64,000 bases of DNA from Macrostomum lignano (lineage: Eukaryota), in contig NIVC01000296.1 of the NCBI GenBank assembly GCA_002269645.1, forward strand, positions 62,001 through 126,000, in the 5' to 3' direction. The position numbers and the translations under genes are program-made. Shown here one piece after another: positions 31,976-45,014 of this stretch (position 1 is its first letter; each line of letters starts with the position of its first letter). Under the pieces are notes generated by a model, which was not told where the DNA came from, ran no database searches, and saw only the letters and a program-made list of their open reading frames with translations.

Positions 31976-33033
31976 TAAAATAATTAACAAAAGATGAATT
32001 GTCGCTAATTCTGAGACTGCATCCTTCCAGACGTGGCAGCAGCAATAGGCTTGCTGCAGTCGCTGTTGAAAGCGGTGGATTGTGGGTTTGTGAAATTTAG
32101 CGACGCATTCATAGAATTTAGCTCATACGATGACAGTAAAAGAAAACAGTATCGAGAAGGCATGCATACAAAGGCATATAGCTGTCCAGGTGCAAAGCAT
32201 GTCGAAAAACAAAGCTTGCAGCGTTTTTGCCATAGACAACTAAGGAATGTGCAGTAGCCAAGCGATATGCGTACGGAGGCTTCGCGGAGTGAAATTGTGC
32301 ACCCCAAATTTAAGACAGCATTCGAGCAATCCATGGTTTTATTTGTCCATGGGTCAAAAAAGCATCAATTTTGTCAAGCTCAGCCACATGTAGGTATATG
32401 AGATTGATCGACACGATAGCACCTGACAATTCAATTCAGACTCCACCTTATGAGCTTAAGTTTACATAAAAGTCCCAAATTTTCATCTTTGCTTGCTCTC
32501 TCCTATCCCAGGTCCAGTTTTTGTCACTTTTTTTGCCAAATCCAGCTTCCTGGTGTCACTGTGACCAAAATGACGTATCATTTGTGTACATAGGTTACTT
32601 TAGGTTCACTTTATGAGCTTAATTAAGTTGACAGGCCCTTTTAAAATCATGCACAAAATTCCGGAACGCGGCTCGAACTTACCTAATAAAGCTTTCAAAA
32701 CTAGCAAGTTCATGTCGGACCCAATTTAATCCAGATCGATTTAATAGCTATTGCGGATAACAGTTTTATTCTTAATGGAAGAAAATTTATATTTACTTAC
32801 TTCCTAATTCTTAGCGTCATATATACGTGCTACATGTATACATCTTTGAAGACACTGCAGGCGGAAATGCACAGTAATCGCAGTTTACACCAAAGCCCAC
32901 ATCTACATCTAATAGCTATCCATAGAAATCCGACGTACTGCTGTATATGAAAGTTACGTACAATTAAAGTTAAGATTGGATCGCAAAACAGATAGACGCA
33001 TAGATACACGTGAAAGCAGCTAACCTTCTTGAC

Positions 33034-33575
33034 ACTACGTAGTGTGCAGAAAGTTGTTGATTTTGGAGGTGAGGTGGGTGTCAGAGCCAATGCAAATTCA
33101 GCGCCTATCTAAATACATTAGACCAATTCTAATTGGTCCAGAGTCATTATGTGAGATATGCATGTAACTCTCATGTAAATCTAATTATACATGTAATCAG
33201 TGTACACTGTGTCGTACAGAAGCGACGACCAGTACAATATAGTACGCATAATTAGCGCTCCGCAGTTGTTGTACGCAGAAACGCGCGCGCCCCCAGCCCC
33301 GCACAATGCAGCATTGGTGTAGCGCAGAATTAACTGTCCATATTAACTGTCCATATACCAAAAATTGGCAGAATTAGAGCGCCCACCCACCCCATAACTG
33401 GCCATATTATTACTTGTCCATATTTACTGTCCATCCCAAAATTGGTGTACACGCAGAATTGTAGCGCCCACCCATCCAAGAAAATATTCTGTCGCCTCTC
33501 ACAATTAATTGGAGGCCCCGCGCGGAGGCATGATGAGTCAGTCAGCCAGTAAATCGCCGCTGTCCACCCCTCTGC
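33034..33575 (+). repeat. Left terminal inverted repeat of the Polinton
   Basis: 33034-~33470 is the reverse complement of ~42390-42825 with 5 mismatches by manual comparison. After an indel, 33514-33575 again matches 42221-42282. Confidence 0.95.
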
Positions 33576-33830
33576 CCTGCGCTGGCCGCTATAGCTACCA
33601 GCAGTGTTACGCAACAACCCGGTCGAGCCACAATGCTAACTTTATAGCCAGACACGTCATCAAGGTGGGAAAACACAAACTTCTATGCATGAAATATTCT
33701 CGTAAATGCCAAACCAACTTTGTTCAGACAGCAAACTATAAATAAGAAAATTTGGATTCTCGGCCGTTTATCTAAATTCACCAAGTTCAATTAACAACCC
33801 AATCATTGGAAAACGCAGTGTTTGACAAGC

Positions 33831-34775
33831 AATTTTTGGTTGCCAAAGCACAAGAGGATCAGACCGACAAAGCATGAACTGCCAACAACTTGGAACAAGG
33901 ATTTCAACACCTCCAACGCCAGCACCGAAAATAGGCACAAAAGGCTCATTTTTCTGGAATCCTTGATAACGACAACACCGTAAAAAGCTCGTTAACATGT
34001 AATTAAAACAAAAACTTATTGAGACTCTCGGGTATATAAGCACCAACCCGGGGCACCAAGCACCCGTACCTGCAAAATTTTCTCGGATTCTCGGCAGTTT
34101 TTCAAGCTCAAATAACACCCCCACCACTAGTGCGAACAACGCAGCAAGTGCTGACAAGAAATGAGCTGGATTTCCAGAGACTACCCCCTATTATCGAACG
34201 AGGAAAAAGACGAATATCAGGCCTTGAAAAAATCTGCTGACTGGTTGTGCATTTGCCACAGCAAACCGATTTCCGAGCGATTAGTCACCTTCAATGCCAA
34301 GGTCGAGGAAATTGATCAAGGCCCCTACGACAGCCAAGACTACGCAGCAGCCAGGATAAATGAGCAACTACGGGACAAAATGAGATTCAAAGCTGATTTA
34401 GCACGAATGGAGAGATTACTGGCTCCGATACTAAGTGAAGAGCATCGCCAAAAATACGTTTTCGGAACCATCAAGATCTGTATAATCCGTCGTGGGAGGA
34501 GCAACAAAAGATTTGGAATTTTTGGTTGCCAAAGCACAAGAGGAACAGGCCGCCAAAGCTTGAACTACCAGCAACTTGGAGCAAGGATTTCAGCACACCT
34601 CCAACGCCAGCACCCGAAAATAGGAACAAAAGGTTCATTTTTTCCGGAATCCTCGATAACGACAACTCTGTAAAAAGCTCGTTATCGTGTAATTAAAACA
34701 AAAACTTATTGAGACTCTCGGGTATATAAGCACCAGCCCGGAGCATCTGCAAGCGCCCGTACCTGCAAATTTTTC
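33831..34775 (+). promoter_or_regulatory. Two diverged ~250-bp direct repeats (33831-34082, 34517-34775), each ending in a TATATAAG box upstream of an ORF
   Basis: Both share AATTTTTGGTTGCCAAAGCACAAGAGGA...GTAATTAAAACAAAAACTTATTGAGACTCTCGGGTATATAAGCACC. TATA boxes at 34033 and 34723; ATGs at 34161 and 34792. Confidence 0.8.
34161..34673 (+). CDS. Polinton ORF1, unknown function (170 aa; C-terminal part runs into repeat copy 2)
   Basis: ATG-initiated ORF downstream of a TATA box inside the element; no recognisable motif. Confidence 0.5.
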   Translation: MSWISRDYPLLSNEEKDEYQALKKSADWLCICHSKPISERLVTFNAKVEEIDQGPYDSQDYAAARINEQLRDKMRFKADLARMERLLAPILSEEHRQKYVFGTIKICIIRRGRSNKRFGIFGCQSTRGTGRQSLNYQQLGARISAHLQRQHPKIGTKGSFFPESSITTTL

Positions 34776-34791
34776 TAAACAGACAAGAGAC

Positions 34792-35544
34792 ATGGAGACA
34801 GTGCAAGACTTCAACTGCGTCAAGCGAGAGCTGCTGGCACTCAAACCGCGAGGTCCGAGCTTCAACGGGGTTGAAACGTTTGACATTGAATATGACAAAC
34901 AGGGACCTCTCTACTTGGCCAATGCGGTCCCTGTTTTGATCGTCAAGGGCGTGCGTACTGACAACGAAGGTCGCGAATTCATCATCATTGCACAAAAACA
35001 CATTGAAAGCTGCATACCCTACACTTTCAACACTGTGGCGGAGCACCTTTCCAGCGAAAGTCTAGCTCTGCTGGGCTACAACCCAGCGTTTGGAGGTGAC
35101 AGTGCAGCGTTTGGGCTGGCTCACGACTTTAAAATGTACGACCAAAACGGACTGCCTGTAGAGGATTACAAAAACAAGAGCGGCTACTACAGGATTCTGT
35201 TTACTCTCGACACGGCCGTGATTCGAGACGCTGTTTTGACCGCAATGCCAAAAATTCAACAGCTACAGTTTGTCGAAGAAGCCAAACAGGCATTCGATCG
35301 TTGCTATTGGACGCCACCTCCAAAAATCAAGGTAGGCGCCAAGAAAGTAAGCAAGAAAGCAAAGAAACCACCAAAGCTTGTCAAGGAGAAGCAGCCAAAG
35401 GTGCCTAAAAATCAGGCCAGAAAGCGACAGCATCAATCGAAACTAGTAGCAGCCAACGAATCAAAGAAGCGGTCGAAAGCCCCCAAGAAGGATACGAAAG
35501 TAAAAACTGCCGAAAAATCTACTTGCAGAACGTCGAGTGTGTGA
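34792..35544 (+). CDS. Polinton ORF2 (250 aa), possible OB-fold ssDNA-binding protein with Lys-rich tail
   Basis: ORF after a TATA box. FKMYDQNGLPV...YYRILFTLDTAVIRDAVLTAMPKIQQLQF resembles the beta-strand pattern of viral (T7 gp2.5/NCLDV-type) SSBs. The functional call is tentative. Confidence 0.55.
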   Translation: METVQDFNCVKRELLALKPRGPSFNGVETFDIEYDKQGPLYLANAVPVLIVKGVRTDNEGREFIIIAQKHIESCIPYTFNTVAEHLSSESLALLGYNPAFGGDSAAFGLAHDFKMYDQNGLPVEDYKNKSGYYRILFTLDTAVIRDAVLTAMPKIQQLQFVEEAKQAFDRCYWTPPPKIKVGAKKVSKKAKKPPKLVKEKQPKVPKNQARKRQHQSKLVAANESKKRSKAPKKDTKVKTAEKSTCRTSSV

Positions 35545-36002
35545 ACCGAGTGTTTTGCGCGAAATGGAGCCGCATGCCTGACTTGGACTGGGCGAACGCA
35601 CGGACATTTCGCAGACCAAGAGCTCTTATCAATTTGCGAATAGGAAAATGTACAATCAACTTTTTTCAGCGTTCTTTGTCTGCAATTGTATTCGGTTGTC
35701 GCTCAGTCAACCAAGTTTTGCGTCTTTTTCCTCAATGTAAACCAATTTCTGTTGTTGTTACCACTAGTACTTACCGCGCTGAAGTAGACAGATGGCCAAA
35801 CTTTTTCCAAATTGCATACTCCGGGTCCCGCTGGGTGAAGTGGGAGTGTGAAGTTTTCAATGGAATAGTAATAAAGTCTCCATTTCGCAATGCTAAATGT
35901 TTATTATGCGGAAAGAATGGCCGCCTTGTTTTCCTTGGAATACGAAACTTTAAAGAGCTCTGTCAAATGTACGATCATGTGACTAGCGTTTTGCATGTCT
36001 AA
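35523..36002 (+). CDS. Compact TATA-binding protein (TBP)-like protein encoded by the Polinton
   Basis: LQNVECVN ~ TBP [41 protein letters not shown] ~ [45 protein letters not shown]...[27 protein letters not shown] ~ [12 protein letters not shown]...[27 protein letters not shown]. Both TBP repeats are present with TBP-like spacing. First ATG is at 35574. Confidence 0.75.
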   Translation: [159 protein letters not shown]

Positions 36003-36142
36003 TCCATGTAGCTGTTGCGTAACTTTACTGCTTTACCACTGTACCGAATTTGTATGTACGTACAAGCTGCTATGAAATGGTCTATAAATATATTGTGCAT
36101 AAATTGCAGTGCACTGCAACCAACATCTTTTTGCTAAACAAA

Positions 36143-36499
36143 ATGACAAACGGAATCTCCAGACTATGTTCTTGTCGCGGCGAGCTCGCAGAGCTCGCCA
36201 AAGCCCGTCCCACTCTTCGGCGGTTCATTATTCGAGGTGCAGGCAAGGAACTGATTCATTGTCTCTGTGAATTGAGTCACAACGTGCTCCGGGGAAATAT
36301 CGATCTTTCTCCGAAACAGTATCTGCGATTAAAGCGATACAGAAGATCGTTGCGTGAATTGGCAGACACAAAATTGTCTATAAATAGGAAGAAGAATATG
36401 CTTCTCTCGAATCCTCAAGTCGGTGGCTTTCTACCCATCCTTGCATCTGTTGCTGCACCGCTAATATCAAGCCTGTTTGGCGGACTACTTGGTCGCTAA
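36143..36499 (+). CDS. Polinton basic core protein with adenovirus pX-like C-terminus
   Basis: 118 aa, Arg/Lys-rich (LCELSHNVLRGNIDLSPKQYLRLKRYRRSLR). Ends QVGG|FLPILASVAAPLISSLFGG, like adenoviral pX MRGG|ILPLLIPLIAAAIG. Confidence 0.7.
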   Translation: MTNGISRLCSCRGELAELAKARPTLRRFIIRGAGKELIHCLCELSHNVLRGNIDLSPKQYLRLKRYRRSLRELADTKLSINRKKNMLLSNPQVGGFLPILASVAAPLISSLFGGLLGR

Positions 36500-36500
36500 A

Positions 36501-37154
36501 ATGAATAAATACGTTGTTGTACCAGAAGAAGAATTTAATAGACTAAGTCAAGGCGCACCCCGAGAAATTGCATCCAAAACAGAATATGAAAAACTCATTG
36601 AATACAACACTCAACTCCAAAATAAACTAAGTCAGATCAAGCAAAAGAAGAGTAATAGTTTTCCTGAACGACAACAACGTGTTTGGGACATGCTGACAGA
36701 AAGATACCCAAATTTGGAGTACAACAAGTCGTGGGAAATTGTATTTGATGGAAAAACCTGGCCAGGAAGCAATATTTTCGATCTATTGAAGGAGATTACA
36801 TCGAATAAAAGGCGTGACCGCCCAAGCCCAAAATATAGTACCGCTTTTTGGGCCCTGGCCGAAGAGGCAGATATTGCAAAAGCTCTACTAGGACGACGCC
36901 AACAAGAAGAAGTCAGTGTGAAAAAAGAAGTCGGCACAGATCCGGATCGAGACGATTTTTTAGTCGAGCAAGCAATTGGAACTAATGATTTCTACAACGA
37001 CTTCCACAAAGACCAAGCCAGTGGCCTGAATGAAATTAAAAAATATGAAGATCGTGGCAGCAATGCCTACAGGCATGCTTCATACCAACTTCGCGAACCA
37101 AAGAGGCGGCAGAAACCAGCAGTAAAATACGAGACGTTAAAAAACTATAAATAG
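36501..37154 (+). CDS. Conserved Polinton/adintovirus protein of unknown function
   Basis: 217 aa from the ATG at 36501. EIVFDGKTWPGSNIFDLL...P...AFW matches a motif I recall in Maverick ORFs adjacent to the pX-like gene. Confidence 0.6.
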   Translation: MNKYVVVPEEEFNRLSQGAPREIASKTEYEKLIEYNTQLQNKLSQIKQKKSNSFPERQQRVWDMLTERYPNLEYNKSWEIVFDGKTWPGSNIFDLLKEITSNKRRDRPSPKYSTAFWALAEEADIAKALLGRRQQEEVSVKKEVGTDPDRDDFLVEQAIGTNDFYNDFHKDQASGLNEIKKYEDRGSNAYRHASYQLREPKRRQKPAVKYETLKNYK

Positions 37155-37287
37155 AAATCATTTTCATGATTTATAATCTGTTTTTGGATCATGGGTGCCG
37201 CAGCTGTAACTTCAAAGCTTTGCTCAGACAAACCGTCTGTGGAGTTCAAGTGTAATTACTCATGCTGTGCATCGACTCTAGTTGCGA

Positions 37288-37979
37288 ATGAGGGTGAAAA
37301 CCGCTCTTCGGAGAGTGTACGAACAGGGGGACGCCGCTTTTACAAATGCTGCCCGTGTATATCAGGAGGCCAAACGGCTGGTCCCCTCCCTGACGAGACG
37401 CCAAACCGACGAATGGCTGAAGACCCAATCGAGCTACACCCGGCACAAGAGGGTTAAAAGAAAATTCCGAACCGGAAAAGTAATGTCGGGAGGCTTCATG
37501 GAAACTGTGCAAGCGGATTTGATGGACATGTCGCGATACGAACAATGGAATGATGGTCATCGATATATTCTAGTTGCAATTGACGTGCTTAGCAAATTGG
37601 CTTTTTGCCAGCCAATAAAATTGAAAAGCGACACTCCAAAGGCTTTTGAAAGCATGATCAAAGACTTCCCCATTAAGCCTTTATATCTACACGTTGATCG
37701 AGGTACCGAGTTTTATAACAATCGCATGCAGAACTTACTGAAAGCCAATAATATCAAAATGTACAGTACAAACTCTGTATACAAGGCAAATATGGCTGAA
37801 AGGCTGATTAGGACTCTCCGAAAACGGTTCGACCGGACCGCTTTGTTATAGACAAAATTCTGCGTCGCAATGTCGTCATCAATGGTGTTGCTCATCATTT
37901 CGCTAGTTGGCGCGGCTATCCCGAGTCGTTCAATGCATTTGTACGAGTTGAGGAAGTTATAAATATAAGACAAGGATGA
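37288..37979 (+). pseudogene. Retroviral-like (rve) integrase with internal deletion and out-of-frame C-terminal chromodomain
   Basis: DDE triad: YILVAIDVLSK, LHVDRGTEF, MAERLIRTL; stop at 37849-37851. Another frame (37833-37979) reads FVIDKILRRNVVINGVAHHFASWRGYPESFNAFV, a chromodomain-like sequence. Confidence 0.88.
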
Positions 37980-38013
37980 ACACACATACACTCGAAACGT
38001 GTAGTATATTACA

Positions 38014-39166
38014 ATGCATCTATTCCTACCTAGCAATGCGTGCGTTGAGCACTATCCTGAGAATAATTCGGCACATTATAGCATTAATTTGCCCGACACC
38101 CTCCACTTTCCGAATCATGAAGTCTGCATCGAACGGATCTACTTTTGTAAAGAATTCAAAACCGTCCCCGATAATCGAATGGTTGATGTCCTGACCAACG
38201 CTCCCGAGGATGAAGTGATTGACATTGAGGTTAGAGAAAAACCCGCCTCCACGTATTAAACAGTTTGCGTCGGTTTCTCTCGCCGCGGGGCTATCAACAG
38301 CCAACGAAGTGGTTGATGCAATCATTGCCGCTCTAAAATATGAGCAAGACGATAATGCGATGATTTGCATTGAGCGTTCACAGGAAGGCCAAATTTCAAT
38401 TGTGAACAAATCATGGTATGGTGCGAACATTAGGCTGTCCAGTAATGTGTGTAGCATGTTTAAAAAGGTTGACGACGCTGGAAATAAATCAAATATCGAA
38501 GTAACGACTTTTTTATTAAACCCAAGAAATTCGTTAGTATTCGCTATAGAATTGGAGTCCTCCTCCATAGAGAGTCCCATGACTCTAACGTTTGAAAAGA
38601 GTGTCTGGCCTTCTAGAACGTCACTGCGGATTGCTAAAAGATTCTACCGCACGCCTGACGAGCTCTTAAATTATGTTAATGGAGCGCTTTGGAGCGTCGT
38701 TTCAAAGCTCCCAATAAGTCCAGCGACGAGAGTGGATGCATTCAGCTACAACCCTTTTCTGAACCGGTGTGAGTGCAAACCCATTGAAAACATTTTATTC
38801 GACATTGGAGAGCTTGCTGCCATTCTCGGCTTTCGCGAAGATGTTTTCAATGAAACTCCAAAGACCGCTAAACGACCAATCGATTTAACAAATGGTGTAC
38901 AAACTATGTACATCTATTCAAATATTGTCGACTCTGCCATTGTTGGAGACGTCAAAGTCCCCCTGCTTGGGGCAATTCCTTTGAATGAAAAGGTATACGG
39001 CGAACGAGAGTACTACGAGTTTGTCAATCCATCCTACTTACCGTTGGTGAAACACCCATTCAAAACCATTGAGGTGCAAATCTGTGACGATATGGGCAAG
39101 TTAATGGATCGGATTCTTCGAGGCAAAACTGTTTTATCGATCAACATTCGTGAAATTAAGCTATAA
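38014..39166 (+). CDS. Minor capsid protein (penton), split by a 1-nt frameshift near 38219-38259
   Basis: N-terminus LFLPSNACVEHYPENNSAHYSINLP and C-terminus IDLTNGVQTMYIYSNIVDSAIVGDVKVPLLGAIP...PSYLPL...TIEVQICDDMG are typical of Polinton penton. The two halves are in different frames. Confidence 0.85.
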
Positions 39167-39210
39167 ATAAAGAAGTTTTCACGAATAAAAGGTAGCAACT
39201 GATCGACAAT

Positions 39211-39579
39211 ATGCCTTCAATCTTGATCGGAGGAGCTTTACCGGTATTTTCCGGTGCACAGCGCGGCAACGGCCTGTTTGGCAGCATTGCCCGATTTGCC
39301 CTGCCAATTTTAAAGAGTTTTGGCAAAAATATTCTTCGCCACGGAACACGAGCCCTAGCTACAACAGTTAACGACACACTCGATCAAGGCGGGAACTTGA
39401 AAGAAGCAGCATTGCGTAACTCTGTCCAGGCAGCTAAAGATGCTTTCAAGGACACTGTCGCACAACGAGGTAGCGGCAGACAAAGACGAAGAAAAATGAC
39501 TAACAAAAAAACGAGAAAAAGACTGCAGCATTCTGATATTTTCGACTCTATAAATAAAAAAACCCGTGTCAATAACTGA
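39211..39579 (+). CDS. Polinton core/cement protein precursor (pVII-like), basic C-terminus
   Basis: 122 aa with LIGG|A, QRGNG and QRGSG glycine motifs, amphipathic LFGSIARFALPILKSFG and Arg/Lys tail; lies directly upstream of the capsid gene. Confidence 0.7.
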   Translation: MPSILIGGALPVFSGAQRGNGLFGSIARFALPILKSFGKNILRHGTRALATTVNDTLDQGGNLKEAALRNSVQAAKDAFKDTVAQRGSGRQRRRKMTNKKTRKRLQHSDIFDSINKKTRVNN

Positions 39580-39622
39580 TCTGTCTATTAGAGCACCACA
39601 CTAAGCCGCTGTTGAAAGAAAA

Positions 39623-40906
39623 ATGACTGAGTGCCTGTGTACAAAGTCGGAATTCGAGCTATTTGCTCCTCGCGCACACCAAATTGCTGCAATTAGCGCT
39701 ACCACTGAAGAAGTTCACCCTGTTGCCAGTGTTGAAAATGCCAGCGTGGTCGAATTTAGGATTGTTGGTGGTGAGACGTTTATCGATCTTAACGACATTG
39801 ACCTCGAGATTAAGGCCCGCGTTAAGCAGTCTAATGGTACAAATCTTGCTGCTGATTCGAATGTTGCGCCGGTCAATTACGTCCTTGAAAGCATGTTTAA
39901 AAACGTCACGTTGACAATCAACGGGACACACGTAGAGTCGAGCAATAACAACCACGCTTACAAAGCCTACATTCGCACGTGTTTGAATTACGGACACGAT
40001 TCAAAAACCAACCAACTGAGAATGATGGGCTACGCAAAGGACGCTGGAGGTCAAATGGCTGTGGTTGGAAATCCTGGCTTTGTAGCCCGCAAGGCGATGG
40101 CAGCAAACTCACGCACCTTTCACCTTTATGGACCTCTTAGTTTAGACTTTTTTGTTACCAACGACCGAATGCTACTGCCATACACTGATATGGTAATTAC
40201 GCTGACCATGCACAATTCCGGCTTCGTTCTGGAAAACCACGCGGACGGGGTTGATGCGCGGCTAGTACTCGAGAGTGCCAAACTACATGTGCGCCGCGTC
40301 AAGGCAAACCCCCAATTGGCATTGGAGATTGAAGAACAACTAGGCAAACAGAATGCAATCTATCCGATTGAGCGACTTGTTGTGCACAATACTTCAGTGG
40401 CTGGCGGTGTTCGGGACATGTCAATCAATAATATATTTCCTGAACAAAAGCCTAAACTAGTGGTTGTTGGCATGGTAAACAGCGGCGCGTACAACGGTGT
40501 GGCTACACATAACCCGTTTAAATTTGAGCCATTTGGGGCAGACAGTGTCGCTCTGTATAAGGACGGAGTCAGTCTGTGTGGACAACCGTTTACTCCTCGA
40601 TTCGGTGTTCATAACTATGCTCGCGAGTATGCCATGCTACTAAAAAGCCTAGGAAAGATGAATCGGGACCTGGATATTGACGTATCATATTCCGACTATG
40701 GAGCTGGCTACTGCTTCTTCGCCTGGAATCTCATGCCCGACATGGAGCTGGGCGGGCATAGCATGCCTCGCGAGCGAGGGAATCTGACGCTACAAATAAA
40801 GTTTTCTGCTGCCTTGGCCGCAGGAATCAACGTGTTGGTGTTTGGCTACTTTGACAATACTGTGCAAATCACTCGCGGTCGTCAGGTTATTATAGACTAC
40901 GTGTAG
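39623..40906 (+). CDS. Major capsid protein (double jelly-roll, hexon-like)
   Basis: Intact 427-aa ORF. CTKSEFELF...HPVASVENASVVEFRI...FIDLNDIDL, LVVVGMVNSGAYNG...NPFKFEPF and YGAGYCFFAWNLMPD match Maverick capsid motifs (F54H12.2-type, from recall). Confidence 0.92.
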   Translation: MTECLCTKSEFELFAPRAHQIAAISATTEEVHPVASVENASVVEFRIVGGETFIDLNDIDLEIKARVKQSNGTNLAADSNVAPVNYVLESMFKNVTLTINGTHVESSNNNHAYKAYIRTCLNYGHDSKTNQLRMMGYAKDAGGQMAVVGNPGFVARKAMAANSRTFHLYGPLSLDFFVTNDRMLLPYTDMVITLTMHNSGFVLENHADGVDARLVLESAKLHVRRVKANPQLALEIEEQLGKQNAIYPIERLVVHNTSVAGGVRDMSINNIFPEQKPKLVVVGMVNSGAYNGVATHNPFKFEPFGADSVALYKDGVSLCGQPFTPRFGVHNYAREYAMLLKSLGKMNRDLDIDVSYSDYGAGYCFFAWNLMPDMELGGHSMPRERGNLTLQIKFSAALAAGINVLVFGYFDNTVQITRGRQVIIDYV

Positions 40907-40954
40907 AAACAAACATCTTTTTTATTCTCGAATAACGGCTATATTCATGCCGAT

Positions 40955-41404
40955 ATGAATAGTCTAGATATATTAGAACGTCTAATACTACCTGTCCCTG
41001 TTCGAGTAACACCAGTTGACAGGATTCCGCAGCCTGTTTATCCTGCTGCATACGTGATTAACTTTGACACTGGCAATCTACCAGGCACTCACTGGGCTTT
41101 AATTTGTCTTCATGCCGATGAGAGCGTGACATTTTTTGACCCCTTGTGTATCGATCCTGTGCCAGATTTATTAAAGTTGTGGATCGCAAAGTATGTCCCT
41201 GTGGAGGTGGCCATGAACCGGCATCCTGTACAGCATCCGCTGAGTGTGACCTGCGGGGCTCATGTAATATTTGTGGCTGAAAAACACTTTCTGGAGGGTC
41301 TGTCAATTGAAAAAATATTGCGCGACTGTTATAGCACAAATCTTTACGAGAACGACTTGATGGTGCAGAATCACTGTCTACAAATAAAGCAGCATCATCC
41401 ATAA
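40955..41404 (+). CDS. Adenain-like cysteine protease
   Basis: 149 aa with catalytic motifs INFDTGNLPGTHW (His), TFFDP (Asp) and QHPLSVTCG (Gln/Cys). Confidence 0.92.
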   Translation: MNSLDILERLILPVPVRVTPVDRIPQPVYPAAYVINFDTGNLPGTHWALICLHADESVTFFDPLCIDPVPDLLKLWIAKYVPVEVAMNRHPVQHPLSVTCGAHVIFVAEKHFLEGLSIEKILRDCYSTNLYENDLMVQNHCLQIKQHHP

Positions 41405-41406
41405 AT

Positions 41407-42056
41407 ATGATTGGGCGGCCTATCAAAATGTATCAAACAATAGACCCCGACTCTTTAAAATTTGCCCCCAAAACGTCGGCAATTTTTGCTGGGGTGGCTC
41501 AAAGCGGCAAGACCACACTTGTGAAAAACCTATTGAGACAAGAATTTTTTCAAGATCCGAAGCCGATTCGTGTAGACTGGTTTGGCCACTATCCGGATCC
41601 TGAACTGTTTGAATTGCCGTACCCTGTAAATTTTCGTTCGTGTACATTTGATCCTGAACAATATGTCCCTGAACCAAATATTCTGCTTGTCGTCGATGAC
41701 CAAATGCATGCCATGGAAAAGAGTGGCGCTTTTACAACTTTTTTCACGCGCAAAGTCTCCCACGTGGGGTTCCGACTTTGGTATCTTGTGCAAAACCTGT
41801 TTGCAAAGGGTAAGGAGCACCGAACTCAGTCGCTCAATTCGAACTACCTTGTTTTATTCCGCAATGTACGGGATGCCAGCACAGTGTCTCATATTGCAAG
41901 GCAGCTGGTCCCCACTAATCCAAAAAGTTTTGTCAAAACGTATGAGGATCTACTCGCGACCCCTACTCATACTTGATTGTAAACTGTTTGCAAAATGCTC
42001 CTGCTCGCTATTATTCAAACGTTTTGGGTCGTCACCCAATTGTGTATGCTAAATAA
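41407..42056 (+). CDS. A32/FtsK-like genome-packaging ATPase; C-terminus frameshifted at a C4 run (41960-41963)
   Basis: Walker A GVAQSGKT, Walker B LLVVDD, plus LVQNLF...SLNSNYLVLFRNVRD. The -1 frame continues PYSYLIVN...VYAK* to 42056, followed by an overlapping AATAAA. Confidence 0.9.
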
Positions 42057-42220
42057 ATATACGTATCAAAGCTCGGCCGGCTTTTTGTGTAAATATATAT
42101 ACGCCTTTTGAAAACTTATTTGGGAGAGGGGGTTGGGGGATGACGTAATTGTCTCGGAGTGTCGACGAGGGCTGAATTCTAGAGAGTGAAGTATGGAAGG
42201 AGTGGATGTAACAGGCTGCA

Positions 42221-42825
42221 GCAGAGGGGTGGACAGCGGCGATTTACTGGCTGACTGACTCATCATGCCTCCGCGTGGGGCCGCCAATTTTGTGGGGGTC
42301 ACAGACAATTCTGTGCGTACACCGATTTTGGGTGTATATATGGACAGTAAATATGGACAATTAATAATATGGACCGTTATGGGGTGGGCGGGCGCTACAA
42401 TTCTGCGCGTACACCAATTTTGGGATGGACAGTAAATATGGATAAGTAATAATATGGACAGTTATGGGGTGGGTGGGCGCTCTAATTCTGCCAATGTTTG
42501 GTATATGGACAGTTAATATGGACAGTTAATTCTGCGCTACACCAATGCTGCATTGTGCGGGGCTGGGGGCGCGCGCGTTTCTGCGTACAACAACTGCGGA
42601 GCGCTAATTATGCGTACTATATTGTACTGGTCGTCGCTTCTGTACGACACAGTGTACACTGATTACATGTATAATTAGATTTACATGAGAGTTACATGCA
42701 TATCTCACATAATGACTCTGGACCAATTAGAATTGGTCTAATGTATTTAGATAGGCGCTGAATTTGCATTGGCTCTGACACCCACCTCACCTCCAAAATC
42801 AACAACTTTCTGCACATTACGTAGT
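42221..42825 (-). repeat. Right terminal inverted repeat of the Polinton
   Basis: Reverse complement of the left TIR, with one extra internal subrepeat unit (CCATATT...GCAGAATT type). Confidence 0.95.
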
Positions 42826-45014
42826 CTTGACAATATACGGGTTTAATTCTACATGTATATCGGCGGTCGCGTGATCAAAGGTCATGATGATGCAATTTTT
42901 CTATGTTATGCAGCGCAGTTAGATAATTGTTACCTGCCAGCTATTCGGGGGTATGATTCTCGTATGGCTTGCCTACAGTTCGCATACACTATATATACTG
43001 AACAGTGATTAAAATGCTAATTTTTCGCCAGGTTGTTCGAAAATTTGTTCTCTTTAACATGATGCAAAGTTTTGAGCTAAATCTATGCAGACATTACATG
43101 GCATACTTATAACTCAGTGAGCACAATGGCACGGTACATGTATTTAGAGTTTTCAAGATTAGCAATTAATTAATATACTATATGTAACCTCATACCCTTC
43201 TGTTTGATTGTCTTTTGCTCTTTTGCTCTCGATCACCTCGTCCAGGAATAAATTATTGAGCTTTTGAGAGACGCTTTTTTGCAACTGAGCAGTCCTATTT
43301 AGGCCAGCACCGACGAGTGTAGCGCCCTCTGTACCTCTATAGCGACATGTACTCTTCTTAGTGGTTCTTTTCATGAATCTAGCATGCTTGCTATATATAT
43401 TTTTCACTAACTGATGGAAAACCCAACTTTTATCCATCACGCATGCTATTAAATTTATAACTGTAATCATCCATCATTATTTTTCTCTTTATCTCAAGGC
43501 GTCCTAGGACACAAAGTTAGCTCTGCGATTCTGTAGTTCCTGGAAGAGGAACTCTCGATTATCTTGGAGCACTGCTATTATAAGTAGACACACTCATGTG
43601 ATATTCACCCCATGGAACTTGTAGTTGTGTAGTTCAGTAGATTGAACATTGAACAGTTCTTATTCTTATTCAAATCTTAGCCGAAAAACACATCGGTCGT
43701 CATAAGTCTCGTTCGTGCATTAAAATCACTCAGCATTTAGTCGCACCATTTTAAGATCGCGTTTTCCACGAAGTTAAGAAATTCGCTGGTCATATTATGT
43801 TTATAAACTGTGTTTTAACATCGCCTGATTGTTTTACTGTACTTACCGACATTGTTTAATCTTGTATTCATGCACAAATTTATTTTTTTTACTATTTATT
43901 ATATTTTAAATTTTGCTCCTAAAAATTCAAATAGCTAAGCAAGCAATTTTGCTAGCTATTCACAATAAAGCAAAAGTATTATATATTTTATTATTATTTA
44001 ATTATTAAATTATTGGTTCATAAAATTTCTCTATTTTTTTTAGGAATGTTTTATGTAGACAGGATATTTTAATGAAAAAAGAATTTGATATTTTTATTAA
44101 GCTAAATAGCCCTATTCCAATTTACCAATAGACAATACAATCAAATGTAATCAGCTATAATGTTATAATAGGGCTCTTGTAGGTATAAAGCATTAAAATT
44201 AATTTTTTAAAGAATACAAAAGAAATAATAAGCAAATAATAAGATCCCTAGACTTATAAGCAAGGATAAGACTAATAAATAACTTTTTCAATAATACTAA
44301 CCTTGTATATAAGCAAGTAGGAGGGCTTCGAGTTCCTGTTGTTTTTTTACAGAGTTTTCGAGATAGTCTAAATTACCCGTCTTTGATTTGTGATTAAATC
44401 CAGCCCCAAGAGTCGGCAATAGAGGAGAGAGAGCTGCGTGGACAGAAGAGATCAGAGGGAAGATAAGAGCAGAGGGGAGAGATAAGAGAGGAGATAAGAG
44501 TATAGGTGAGATCAGAGGTAAAAAGAGGGAAGAGAGAAGAGAGAAGAGGAGAGAAGAGAAGAGAAGAGAGAAGAGAGCTGAGAAGGGAGCTAAGAAGAGA
44601 CACAAACGTTAAGCGGGCCGGATTGCTATTATGAAGTTTCAAAGGACCATCAGACCGGACAGAGAGGCAAAATAATTCTCCAGAAGTGAAGGTACGAGCA
44701 TGAGGATAAGTGGACCACGCTCGTACCCAAATGCAAACAAAAAACCTCAAACCAAGAAAGTACTACGAGCGCAGCATATGGTTCTTGAGCAGATTTTCAT
44801 TGTCAAAATGAACGCGCGATATTGAAACTTAAAAATCTGAAGTTTAAATCTGTAAAAAATAAATCTGCCGACCCTGTCGTCACATTTCCAGGAGGCTTCA
44901 AGTCCTCCAAGATGCAAACGAGACAAGGAGGTGAGAGTGGTGACTTGAAATTTGTCTTACAAAACCCTCATTAAACAGTTGCCGTGCCATTCATCTTGGA
45001 TTCCCTTCAATGCC

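Follow-up and report, generated by a model that had tools for sequence, protein, structure and literature searches.

Polintons (Mavericks; adintoviruses, Polintoviricetes) are defined by a protein-primed DNA polymerase B (pPolB) and an integrase together. Here we describe an element at positions 33034 to 42825 of a 64,000-nucleotide stretch of the Macrostomum lignano genome (contig NIVC01000296.1, positions 62,001 to 126,000; the whole stretch is hereafter the window), which resembles group 1-like animal Polintons in its terminal inverted repeats (TIRs), 6-bp target-site duplication, rve integrase, candidate capsid and penton, protease and packaging ATPase. Unlike in Polintons, pPolB and the integrase and virion genes form separate elements here: S, to which the window element belongs, and R, whose polymerase falls in a group with Polinton-type pPolBs of amphibians, fish and lancelets. 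S and R carry complementary essential genes and share termini, the marks of a bipartite or segmented genome. We read the window element as the structural segment (family S-A) of a bipartite Polinton and R as its polymerase half, at a probability of about 0.7. Directly observed are the anatomy of the elements, their copy numbers and complementary genes, the matching of their ends, the signs of purifying selection and the spliced joints of R2; trans-complementation, an origin function of the ends and packaging are what we infer.

Several described systems share part of this layout. Nine capsid-less Polintons without major capsid protein, protease and ATPase have, like R, undergone a concerted loss of the virion module (PMC4028283); R is without integrase as well, and differs from them in having a complementary, end-matched S partner. 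Bidnaviruses and the Drosophila Vesanto virus are, as is proposed here for S and R, segmented, derived in part from a Polinton pPolB, and equipped with TIR sequence common to their segments (PMC8363768, PMC11071296). However, they have single-stranded (ss) DNA, a parvovirus-type capsid and NS1, whereas the relatives of the S capsid are Polinton-type, S and R are both integrated, each between 6-bp duplications, and only one of them encodes the integrase. Polinton-like viruses (PLVs) without pPolB possess, like S, a virion module minus the polymerase, but they mostly encode other replication proteins and no rve, while S retains rve and lacks a substitute for the replicase (PMC11161782). The linear killer/helper plasmid pair of yeast also comprises two linear replicons of the pPolB family, one assisting the other, but it is cytoplasmic and, unlike S and R, has neither particles nor a capsid half (PMC13348850). 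In addition, polymerase exchange among Polintons (bioRxiv 10.1101/2023.08.22.554363) and an integrated PLV without integrase (PMC11296320) have been published. In the literature searched (main texts, with few subscription papers and without Repbase), we found neither a bipartite Polinton nor Macrostomum Polintons, and by keyword the word 'bipartite' is absent from the accessible text of PMC11071296, PMC11131425 and two 2026 preprints.

A recurrent element without polymerase

The window element comprises 9,792 bp flanked on each side by CTTGAC. Homologous loci at C2048 and C2183 have these flanks with just one CTTGAC between them, and the element is therefore a true insertion with a 6-bp duplication, at the bounds given in an earlier note that had been made from the letters of the window. 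The near-identity of the TIR cores described there was likewise borne out: the outer arm contains 9 mismatches over 449 nt, 1 of them within the first 329 nt, and is followed by a second, inner arm of 69 nt. TIRs and a 6-bp target-site duplication are thus present as in Polintons. No hairpin was found at the ends, as the terminal 60-mers fold no better than shuffles, and an Rfam search gave no match. The features that bound the element and its left non-coding part are as follows.

33028..33033, no strand: left target-site duplication CTTGAC, occurring once at each of the empty sites (C2048, C2183)
33034..33575, + strand: left TIR, a 449-nt arm (33034-33482) plus a 69-nt arm (33507-33575)
33034..33064, + strand: terminal block of ~30 bp, starting ACTACGTA, which differs among copies and which the S-A element has in common with R2, a pPolB-only family; probably an origin of replication and a site of integrase action
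33831..34083 and 34517..34776, + strand: two direct repeats of ~255 bp, ~89% alike, which sister S-A copies also have
42221..42825, - strand: right TIR
42826..42831, no strand: right target-site duplication CTTGAC

All genes of the element lie on the + strand and its longest open reading frame (ORF) has 427 aa, both as the earlier note had described, and the absence of pPolB that it reported was upheld. Six tblastn queries (five group-matched pPolBs and a small ORF of R1) had no match at E<=0.1 in any of 28 S stretches, the window among them, and a profile built from 16 pPolB sequences reached a best E of 1.4 on the same stretches, against 2e-298 for the positive control. An alternative replicase was not found in cis either: among the ORFs scanned, no Pfam helicase scored above cut-off and nothing matched an NS1-like protein, and the only convincing Walker A motif in the element is that of the packaging ATPase. 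The pPolB sits on the separate R elements instead. S alone is not a Polinton in the strict sense; S and R jointly hold the core gene set.

The genome assembly comprises 764 Mb in 5,269 contigs, and some loci are present twice (for example C296/C4045 and C2246/C522), so that all counts are of positions and not of independent insertions. In a TIR search (40 of 86 candidates scored), we found many end-pairs ~10.2 kb apart, and 19 fetched loci comprised 13 colinear S-A sisters (~96-98% identity), one rearranged copy, four with ends only, and one stopped by a contig end. Both ends are covered at nine S-A loci, and perfect 6-bp duplications flank five of them (four distinct hexamers), with no perfect one at the other four. 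A search with the capsid identified a second family, S-B, whose capsid is 88% identical to that of S-A. S-B elements are ~10.5 kb long with their own TIR of ~655 bp, share ~74% DNA identity with S-A, follow the S-A gene order at 12 loci, and have perfect 6-bp duplications at five of seven loci tested. Together, S-A and S-B account for ~70 positions. Complete censuses of the ssDNA-binding protein (SSB) and TBP-like genes (89/89 and 94/94 candidates scored) returned matches only at S-A/S-B identity levels, including fragments. The recurrence on which the earlier proposal of a polymerase-less element turned is therefore there, since copies of ~10 kb without PolB occur at independent loci with distinct target duplications, and S is a real, recently mobile family. 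Between S-A and S-B, nonsynonymous divergence (dN) is well under synonymous divergence (dS) for every shared gene (dN/dS pairs: capsid 0.067/1.73, integrase 0.126/1.31, ATPase 0.10/1.54, SSB 0.25/3.4), and the polymerase-less layout has therefore long been kept under selection.

The window copy itself is damaged. Its integrase has an internal deletion of ~375 bp at 37821-37829, a segment kept by 12 of the 13 colinear sisters and present for ~260 bp in the thirteenth, and its penton, ATPase and ORF1 frames are interrupted, although the single-base frame breaks may be assembly errors. The complete virion and integrase module credited to it in the earlier note consequently does not hold for this copy. 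Its private integrase deletion would suit an ordinary Polinton that suffered a one-off deletion after insertion. However, dozens of colinear pPolB-less copies with differing flanks, in two diverged families, leave that explanation next to no probability, and the copy census together with the absence of a pPolB remnant refutes the recent-deletion alternative that had been raised beside the satellite proposal.

Polymerase elements R1 and R2 and the matching of ends

To characterize the polymerase elements, representatives of seven pPolB- or capsid-bearing loci were fetched. C491, C173 and C566 are TIR elements of 9-10 kb with pPolB, a 6-bp duplication and ACTAC ends, and without S genes. A census of the R polymerase (130 of 154 candidates scored) gave at least 135 matches at no fewer than 103 positions, in two subfamilies, with R2 ~69% identical to R1; R polymerases are 89-97% identical to proteins labelled Macrostomum lignano. 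pPolB is present in all 23 R loci examined, and none of the 23 elements contains a match to capsid, penton, protease, ATPase, SSB or integrase; the one integrase match among the R stretches is in the flank of C1412, outside the element. Perfect 6-bp duplications were found at 10 of 11 R1 and 7 of 11 R2 loci, and the other five have no second end in the fetched stretch. Most R elements are 8.8-10.1 kb long, with the pPolB gene filling about half, and two R2 loci are short (4.4 and 6.0 kb). A longer pPolB-bearing relative sharing the TIRs, as envisaged in the earlier note, did not emerge among the elements examined; its place is probably taken by these pPolB-only elements, which share with S only the terminal 30 bp.

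R1 encodes a relative (E 1e-9) of the PC4-domain protein of C114, an ordinary full-length 16.8-kb Polinton with AGTAGT ends, which indicates that R is itself Polinton-derived. In a FastTree phylogeny (with long-branch warnings), the pPolBs of R1 and R2 are sisters inside the animal group to which amphibian, fish and lancelet sequences belong; those of C114 and C4948 are unrelated to them. Their divergence (dN 0.30, dS 1.7-2.0) resembles in depth that of S-A and S-B. Intact vertebrate Mavericks have no pPolB introns (PMC8097293), whereas R pPolB has GT-AG introns at matching sites in R1 and R2, one of them within the YxDTDS motif; a 9-nt microexon considered for that region was ruled out in favour of this intron. 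Contigs from runs X10, X16 and X18, which belong to three studies and whose RNA status is a guess of the tool, lack the R2 introns, and one contig of the DNA-type run X9 spans an R2 intron unspliced.

The termini of S-A, S-B, R1 and R2 all begin 5'-ACT, and S and R ends have the form 5'-ACT...AGT-3'. This is the reverse of the AG/AGT starts, (AG)3 or (AGT)2, reported for vertebrate Mavericks (PMC8097293), and the 5'-AG/AGT end motif is accordingly not found in S or R. Within the termini, positions 9-27 differ among copies. The differences come as short blocks that recur in many combinations (window 33042-33060, and all S and R termini), and the two ends of a single copy usually agree. We compared distinct termini of the four families (16 S-A, 8 S-B, 13 R1, 8 R2). 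Over the first 30 nt, the mean number of mismatches is 8.4 for S-A/R2 and 9.3 for S-B/R1, little above the values within S-A (6.1) and S-B (7.7), and it rises to 16.4 for S-A/R1 and 14.6 for S-B/R2. In the variable part, 39 position-matched 6-mers are common to S-A and R2, 54 to S-B and R1, 2 to R1 and R2, and none to S-A/R1, S-B/R2 or S-A/S-B. Past nt 31, paired S and R are unrelated, with 22-23 mismatches in 29 positions. Sharing of variants, beyond a common consensus, suggests that partners may swap terminal sequence or that the same machinery may copy both.

Joined copies, helpers and competing explanations

No copy joining S and R was found among the 70 S and at least 103 R positions, the closest of which are 42.8 kb apart. 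Terminus pattern searches returned 240 A-type and 160 B-type ends, with 0 and 3 for the controls, and among the ends listed (100 of 240 A-type, 100 of 160 B-type) there are 72 end-pairs, of which 62 span <=11.1 kb and 8 span >13 kb. Two of these long pairs were probed. At C694, two probes show a retrotransposon-like stretch inside R2, with frames that we take to be endonuclease and RNase H; at C56 (643541-661960, 18.4 kb; L245-L252), eight probes covering 9.6 kb contain no Polinton protein. Of the other six, C4 is an S-B locus, and the complete censuses place no S-type SSB or TBP match in the remaining five. An R1 copy at C4072:14540 (L253), near the ATPase of another Polinton family, sits inside that family's capsid gene, and C2932 shows a spacing like that of C4072.

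Termini starting ACTACATA, one base under the A-type pattern, occur at C19:1374878, C1117:173160, C1282:85661, C1788:15088 and C4191:919, four of them with different internal sequence, and possibly constitute a third family. Several A-type termini also stand in a row at C362:496180-525281 (~9.9 kb apart) and C157:54556-77045, which suggests tandem arrays or concatemers.

Two candidate helpers were rejected. Elements of 7.6-8.6 kb sharing the S-A TIR proved, in the three examined, to be fold-backs without a gene-sized ORF; the fold-backs C1705, C816, C356 and C1588 (L036, L037, L039, L041) have outer S-A TIRs and inner R2-like DNA (72-77% identity), those at C1705 and C816 have perfect 6-bp duplications, and such gene-less fold-backs are probably parasites of the S/R pair. 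The other, C1313 (14.3 kb), turned out to be an S-A copy that has been rearranged; its capsid block is duplicated and it lacks pPolB. In this and other cases (C1313, L042/L043; C996, L020/L022; L023/L024; L026/L027), flanks are identical but inverted, or the capsid block is duplicated, which suggests fold-back rearrangement or artefacts of the assembly.

A single piece is the usual layout, and presumably also the ancestral one, because 13 of 17 long metagenome contigs (>=8 kb) with a related capsid have pPolB in cis. A one-piece, ACTAC-ended parent might accordingly persist, unassembled or as an exogenous virus, with S and R as its recurrent defective deletion products; the fragmented assembly (5,269 contigs) and the fact that probes reached 2 of the 8 long end-pairs also leave room for it. 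However, deletion products would share the whole TIR, whereas paired S and R differ at 22-23 of 29 positions past nt 31, two lineages separated by dS above 1.3 both have the split layout, and both resolvable long or adjacent cases (C694 and C4072) are nested insertions. We regard such a hidden parent as improbable, a minor contender.

Another explanation is that S and R are independent non-autonomous elements, each borrowing from ordinary full-length Polintons, so that the ends they share would be due to common descent alone. The genome does contain full-length Polintons equipped with pPolB, integrase and capsid (C114, C4948), Polinton-type candidates are abundant genome-wide (974 pPolB, 1,738 integrase and 293 ATPase, in several other families and with many open frames), and integration in trans has been proposed for the integrase-less PLV (PMC11296320). 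By contrast, the C114 end differs from S and R ends at 19-23 of 30 positions and its polymerase is unrelated; a passenger would need no strongly selected capsid and integrase genes; and the dozens of terminal 6-mers in S-A/R2 and S-B/R1, with none in cross pairs, need continuing exchange or a shared replication machinery. This explanation, although the strongest of the alternatives, appears unlikely to us. An autonomous element with S/R-type ends was not found in the partial census, and the elements that share these ends are themselves incomplete. Thus, the satellite proposed in the earlier note is right in that S needs a polymerase from elsewhere, but the likely supplier is R and not an autonomous helper; as R is equally incomplete, without integrase or capsid, the relation looks mutual rather than one of satellite on helper.

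The dependence could also run one way, with S replicating without pPolB (through host enzymes and its own SSB and TBP-like protein) or moving by integrase cut-and-paste, and R a plasmid-like parasite of the S integrase and capsid. It would fit the location of SSB on S and not R, and the larger number of R positions (at least 103, against 70 for S), and small viruses without any recognisable replicase exist (bioRxiv 10.64898/2026.06.19.733378, PMC11071296). However, neither a helicase nor any other replicase turned up in S, whose ends show no hairpin above shuffles. Identical terminal motifs are a feature of a shared protein-primed origin in pPolB replicons, and those of S and R fit such an origin. 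We consider a one-way parasite very improbable. For a bipartite Polinton, the presence of SSB, a replication accessory protein, on S adds to the interdependence of S and R; SSB and TBP-like genes gave no tblastn match in R stretches or in three other Polinton loci tested.

We propose that an ancestral one-piece Polinton may have split into two TIR-bounded linear elements of ~10 kb each. S would supply the integrase, SSB, TBP-like factor and virion genes, and R the spliced protein-primed PolB (R1 also the PC4-related protein). R would be transcribed and spliced in the nucleus, splicing having been seen for R2, to give a polymerase with a terminal-protein domain, assumed for R from the domain layout of Polinton pPolBs (PMC11161782). 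Free linear S and R would both be primed by this polymerase/terminal protein at the ends they share, and would then be copied with the SSB of S. The S integrase would insert either S or R with a 6-bp duplication, and its action on R would explain the duplications around the integrase-less R elements. The ATPase, protease and capsid of S may package S or R. S (10.2-10.5 kb) and R (mostly 8.8-10.1 kb) are close in length, even though the pPolB gene fills about half of R, which would be in keeping with a limit on the length that can be packaged. The pair may later have diverged into the matched systems S-A plus R2 and S-B plus R1, with gene-less fold-backs parasitising the same ends. Splicing and insertion footprints are observed, and the other steps are proposed.

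Several observations weigh against a bipartite Polinton. All five core frames are open in just 2 of 14 S-A and 1 of 11 S-B copies, and mean divergence is 0.85-0.9% among S copies and 3.0-3.9% among R copies (measured on different genes), making S the younger. Further in, the pairing of ends is unclean: nt 28-50 are common to R1 and S-A, and at C56 R2-like DNA follows an S-B-like TIR. Probes cover parts of two of the eight long end-pairs, C694 and C56. Other Polinton genes are abundant and ends were verified for one full-length element, such that other helpers remain candidates. Lastly, complementation and particles are what we infer from the rest.

A bolder form of the bipartite reading would make S and R, each a linear segment of ~10 kb, the two parts of a true bipartite animal DNA virus of the double-jelly-roll kind, copied by the polymerase of R, packaged in the capsid of S, transmitted between cells or worms and separately integrated as proviruses, with two such viruses (S-A plus R2, S-B plus R1) coexisting in one host and kept apart by their terminal 30-bp codes; we put this forward tentatively, as possible though the odds are somewhat against it. 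If the bipartite reading is true, a stable, mutually dependent split Polinton would show how segmented genomes can arise in this group of dsDNA viruses, and the split would also give Polintons a way to swap polymerases, as they are reported to do. From the two matched pairs, the 30-bp terminal element looks to be a specificity code for protein priming and integration, and as R2 is apparently spliced in its host, probably a laboratory flatworm, particle formation by animal Polintons becomes testable there. Surveys that require all core genes within ~20 kb would discard S and R as debris (for example bioRxiv 10.1101/2023.08.22.554363).

Genes of the element and neighbouring features

The genes of the window element, in order, are as follows.

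34161..34673, + strand: ORF1, candidate gene, kept in S-B (dN 0.28, dS 2.0); frame broken in the window copy
34792..35544, + strand: OB-fold ssDNA-binding protein (T7 gp2.5 / Enc34 / ASFV CP312R type) with a basic tail, from its predicted fold
35574..36002, + strand: TBP-like protein, a weak assignment from profile matches
36146..36499, + strand: small conserved Polinton accessory protein, with homologues in pPolB-bearing elements (E 1e-7 to 1e-17)
36501..37154, + strand: conserved accessory protein, with a homologue in the full-length Polinton C114 (E 4e-6)
37288..37975, + strand: rve integrase, truncated in the window copy (Pfam rve E 1.8e-8, above cut-off)
38014..39166, + strand: penton (minor capsid) candidate from its position, with weak homologues beside related capsids; frame interrupted in the window copy
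39211..39579, + strand: small basic protein, putative core protein (dN 0.08, dS saturated)
39623..40906, + strand: major capsid protein candidate, 427 aa, open frame, from homology and synteny
40955..41404, + strand: adenain-like maturation protease (E 4e-15 to the C4948 protease, His and Cys aligned)
41407..42055, + strand: packaging ATPase, Walker A GVAQSGKT; frame interrupted near the 3' end in the window copy

An ssDNA-binding gene and a transcription gene had been proposed from the letters, and they fared differently. The AlphaFold model of ORF 34792 (pLDDT 66) found SSBs of the gp2.5/Enc34/CP312R type in all of the top nine Foldseek rows (E 1.4e-3 to 1.9e-2), and a VIA-align comparison gave Z 7.8 with an rmsd of 5.2, where the tool warns that Z <8 can reflect a common arrangement; identification as an ssDNA-binding protein thus has moderate support from the predicted fold. 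For ORF 35574, the similarity to TBP stands, with support that is weak: its S-B orthologue scores E 1.5e-4 and 22 bits against Pfam TBP (cut-off 22.9), TBP makes up 13 of 14 matches in a PDB profile search at E 0.08-0.7, and its structure model (pLDDT 42) is too poor to search. The ESM Atlas returned nothing for either ORF, and no convincing Pfam match was found for ORF1, S-B ORF0 or several R ORFs. The protein at 36146..36499 is presumably of the kind labelled GasderminX, and that at 36501..37154 is one we take to be PZ-like.

The rve integrase expected of a Polinton is present, and it is open over >=90% of its length in 9 of 14 S-A copies. The capsid candidate is 29-45% identical to proteins of animal Polinton-type elements, some labelled F54H12.2-like, and integrase accompanies the related capsid in all 17 long metagenome contigs. 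Further relatives noted are the 78-80% identical capsids P0001-P0003 and, for the SSB and TBP-like genes, P0017-P0022. Homology and synteny, compared at the level of sequence, are supportive of a double-jelly-roll fold, and no Pfam, NCBIfam or PDB sequence match was obtained; PDB sequence searches likewise gave nothing for the protease, and a search of viral_contigs and a first metagenome scan found no relative. The adenain-like protease and A32/FtsK-type ATPase are recognised through homology to genes of full-length elements, with weak direct Pfam matches: the C4948 protease weakly matches Peptidase_C5, and the C4948 homologue of the ATPase weakly matches Pox_A32. In the penton candidate, the middle (window 38260-38870) is ~25% identical between S-A and S-B while the ends are 76-86% identical, a pattern as expected of an exposed, fast-evolving insert. 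No RNA run is listed as containing the S virion block; runs X10, X16 and X18 contain 61-78% of its words, in contigs that cannot show transcription.

S-B has an additional 117-aa, Cys/His-containing ORF0 (L066:137-490) without an S-A counterpart, and S-A has its duplicated ~255-bp segment there. At L065:4865-8639, adjoining an S-B insertion, are intron-poor-looking frames that presumably encode a protein like the ubiquitin-activating enzyme. The flanks of the element in the window (1-33000 and 43000-64000) are rich in micro- and minisatellites, and the window contains 79 tandem-repeat rows.

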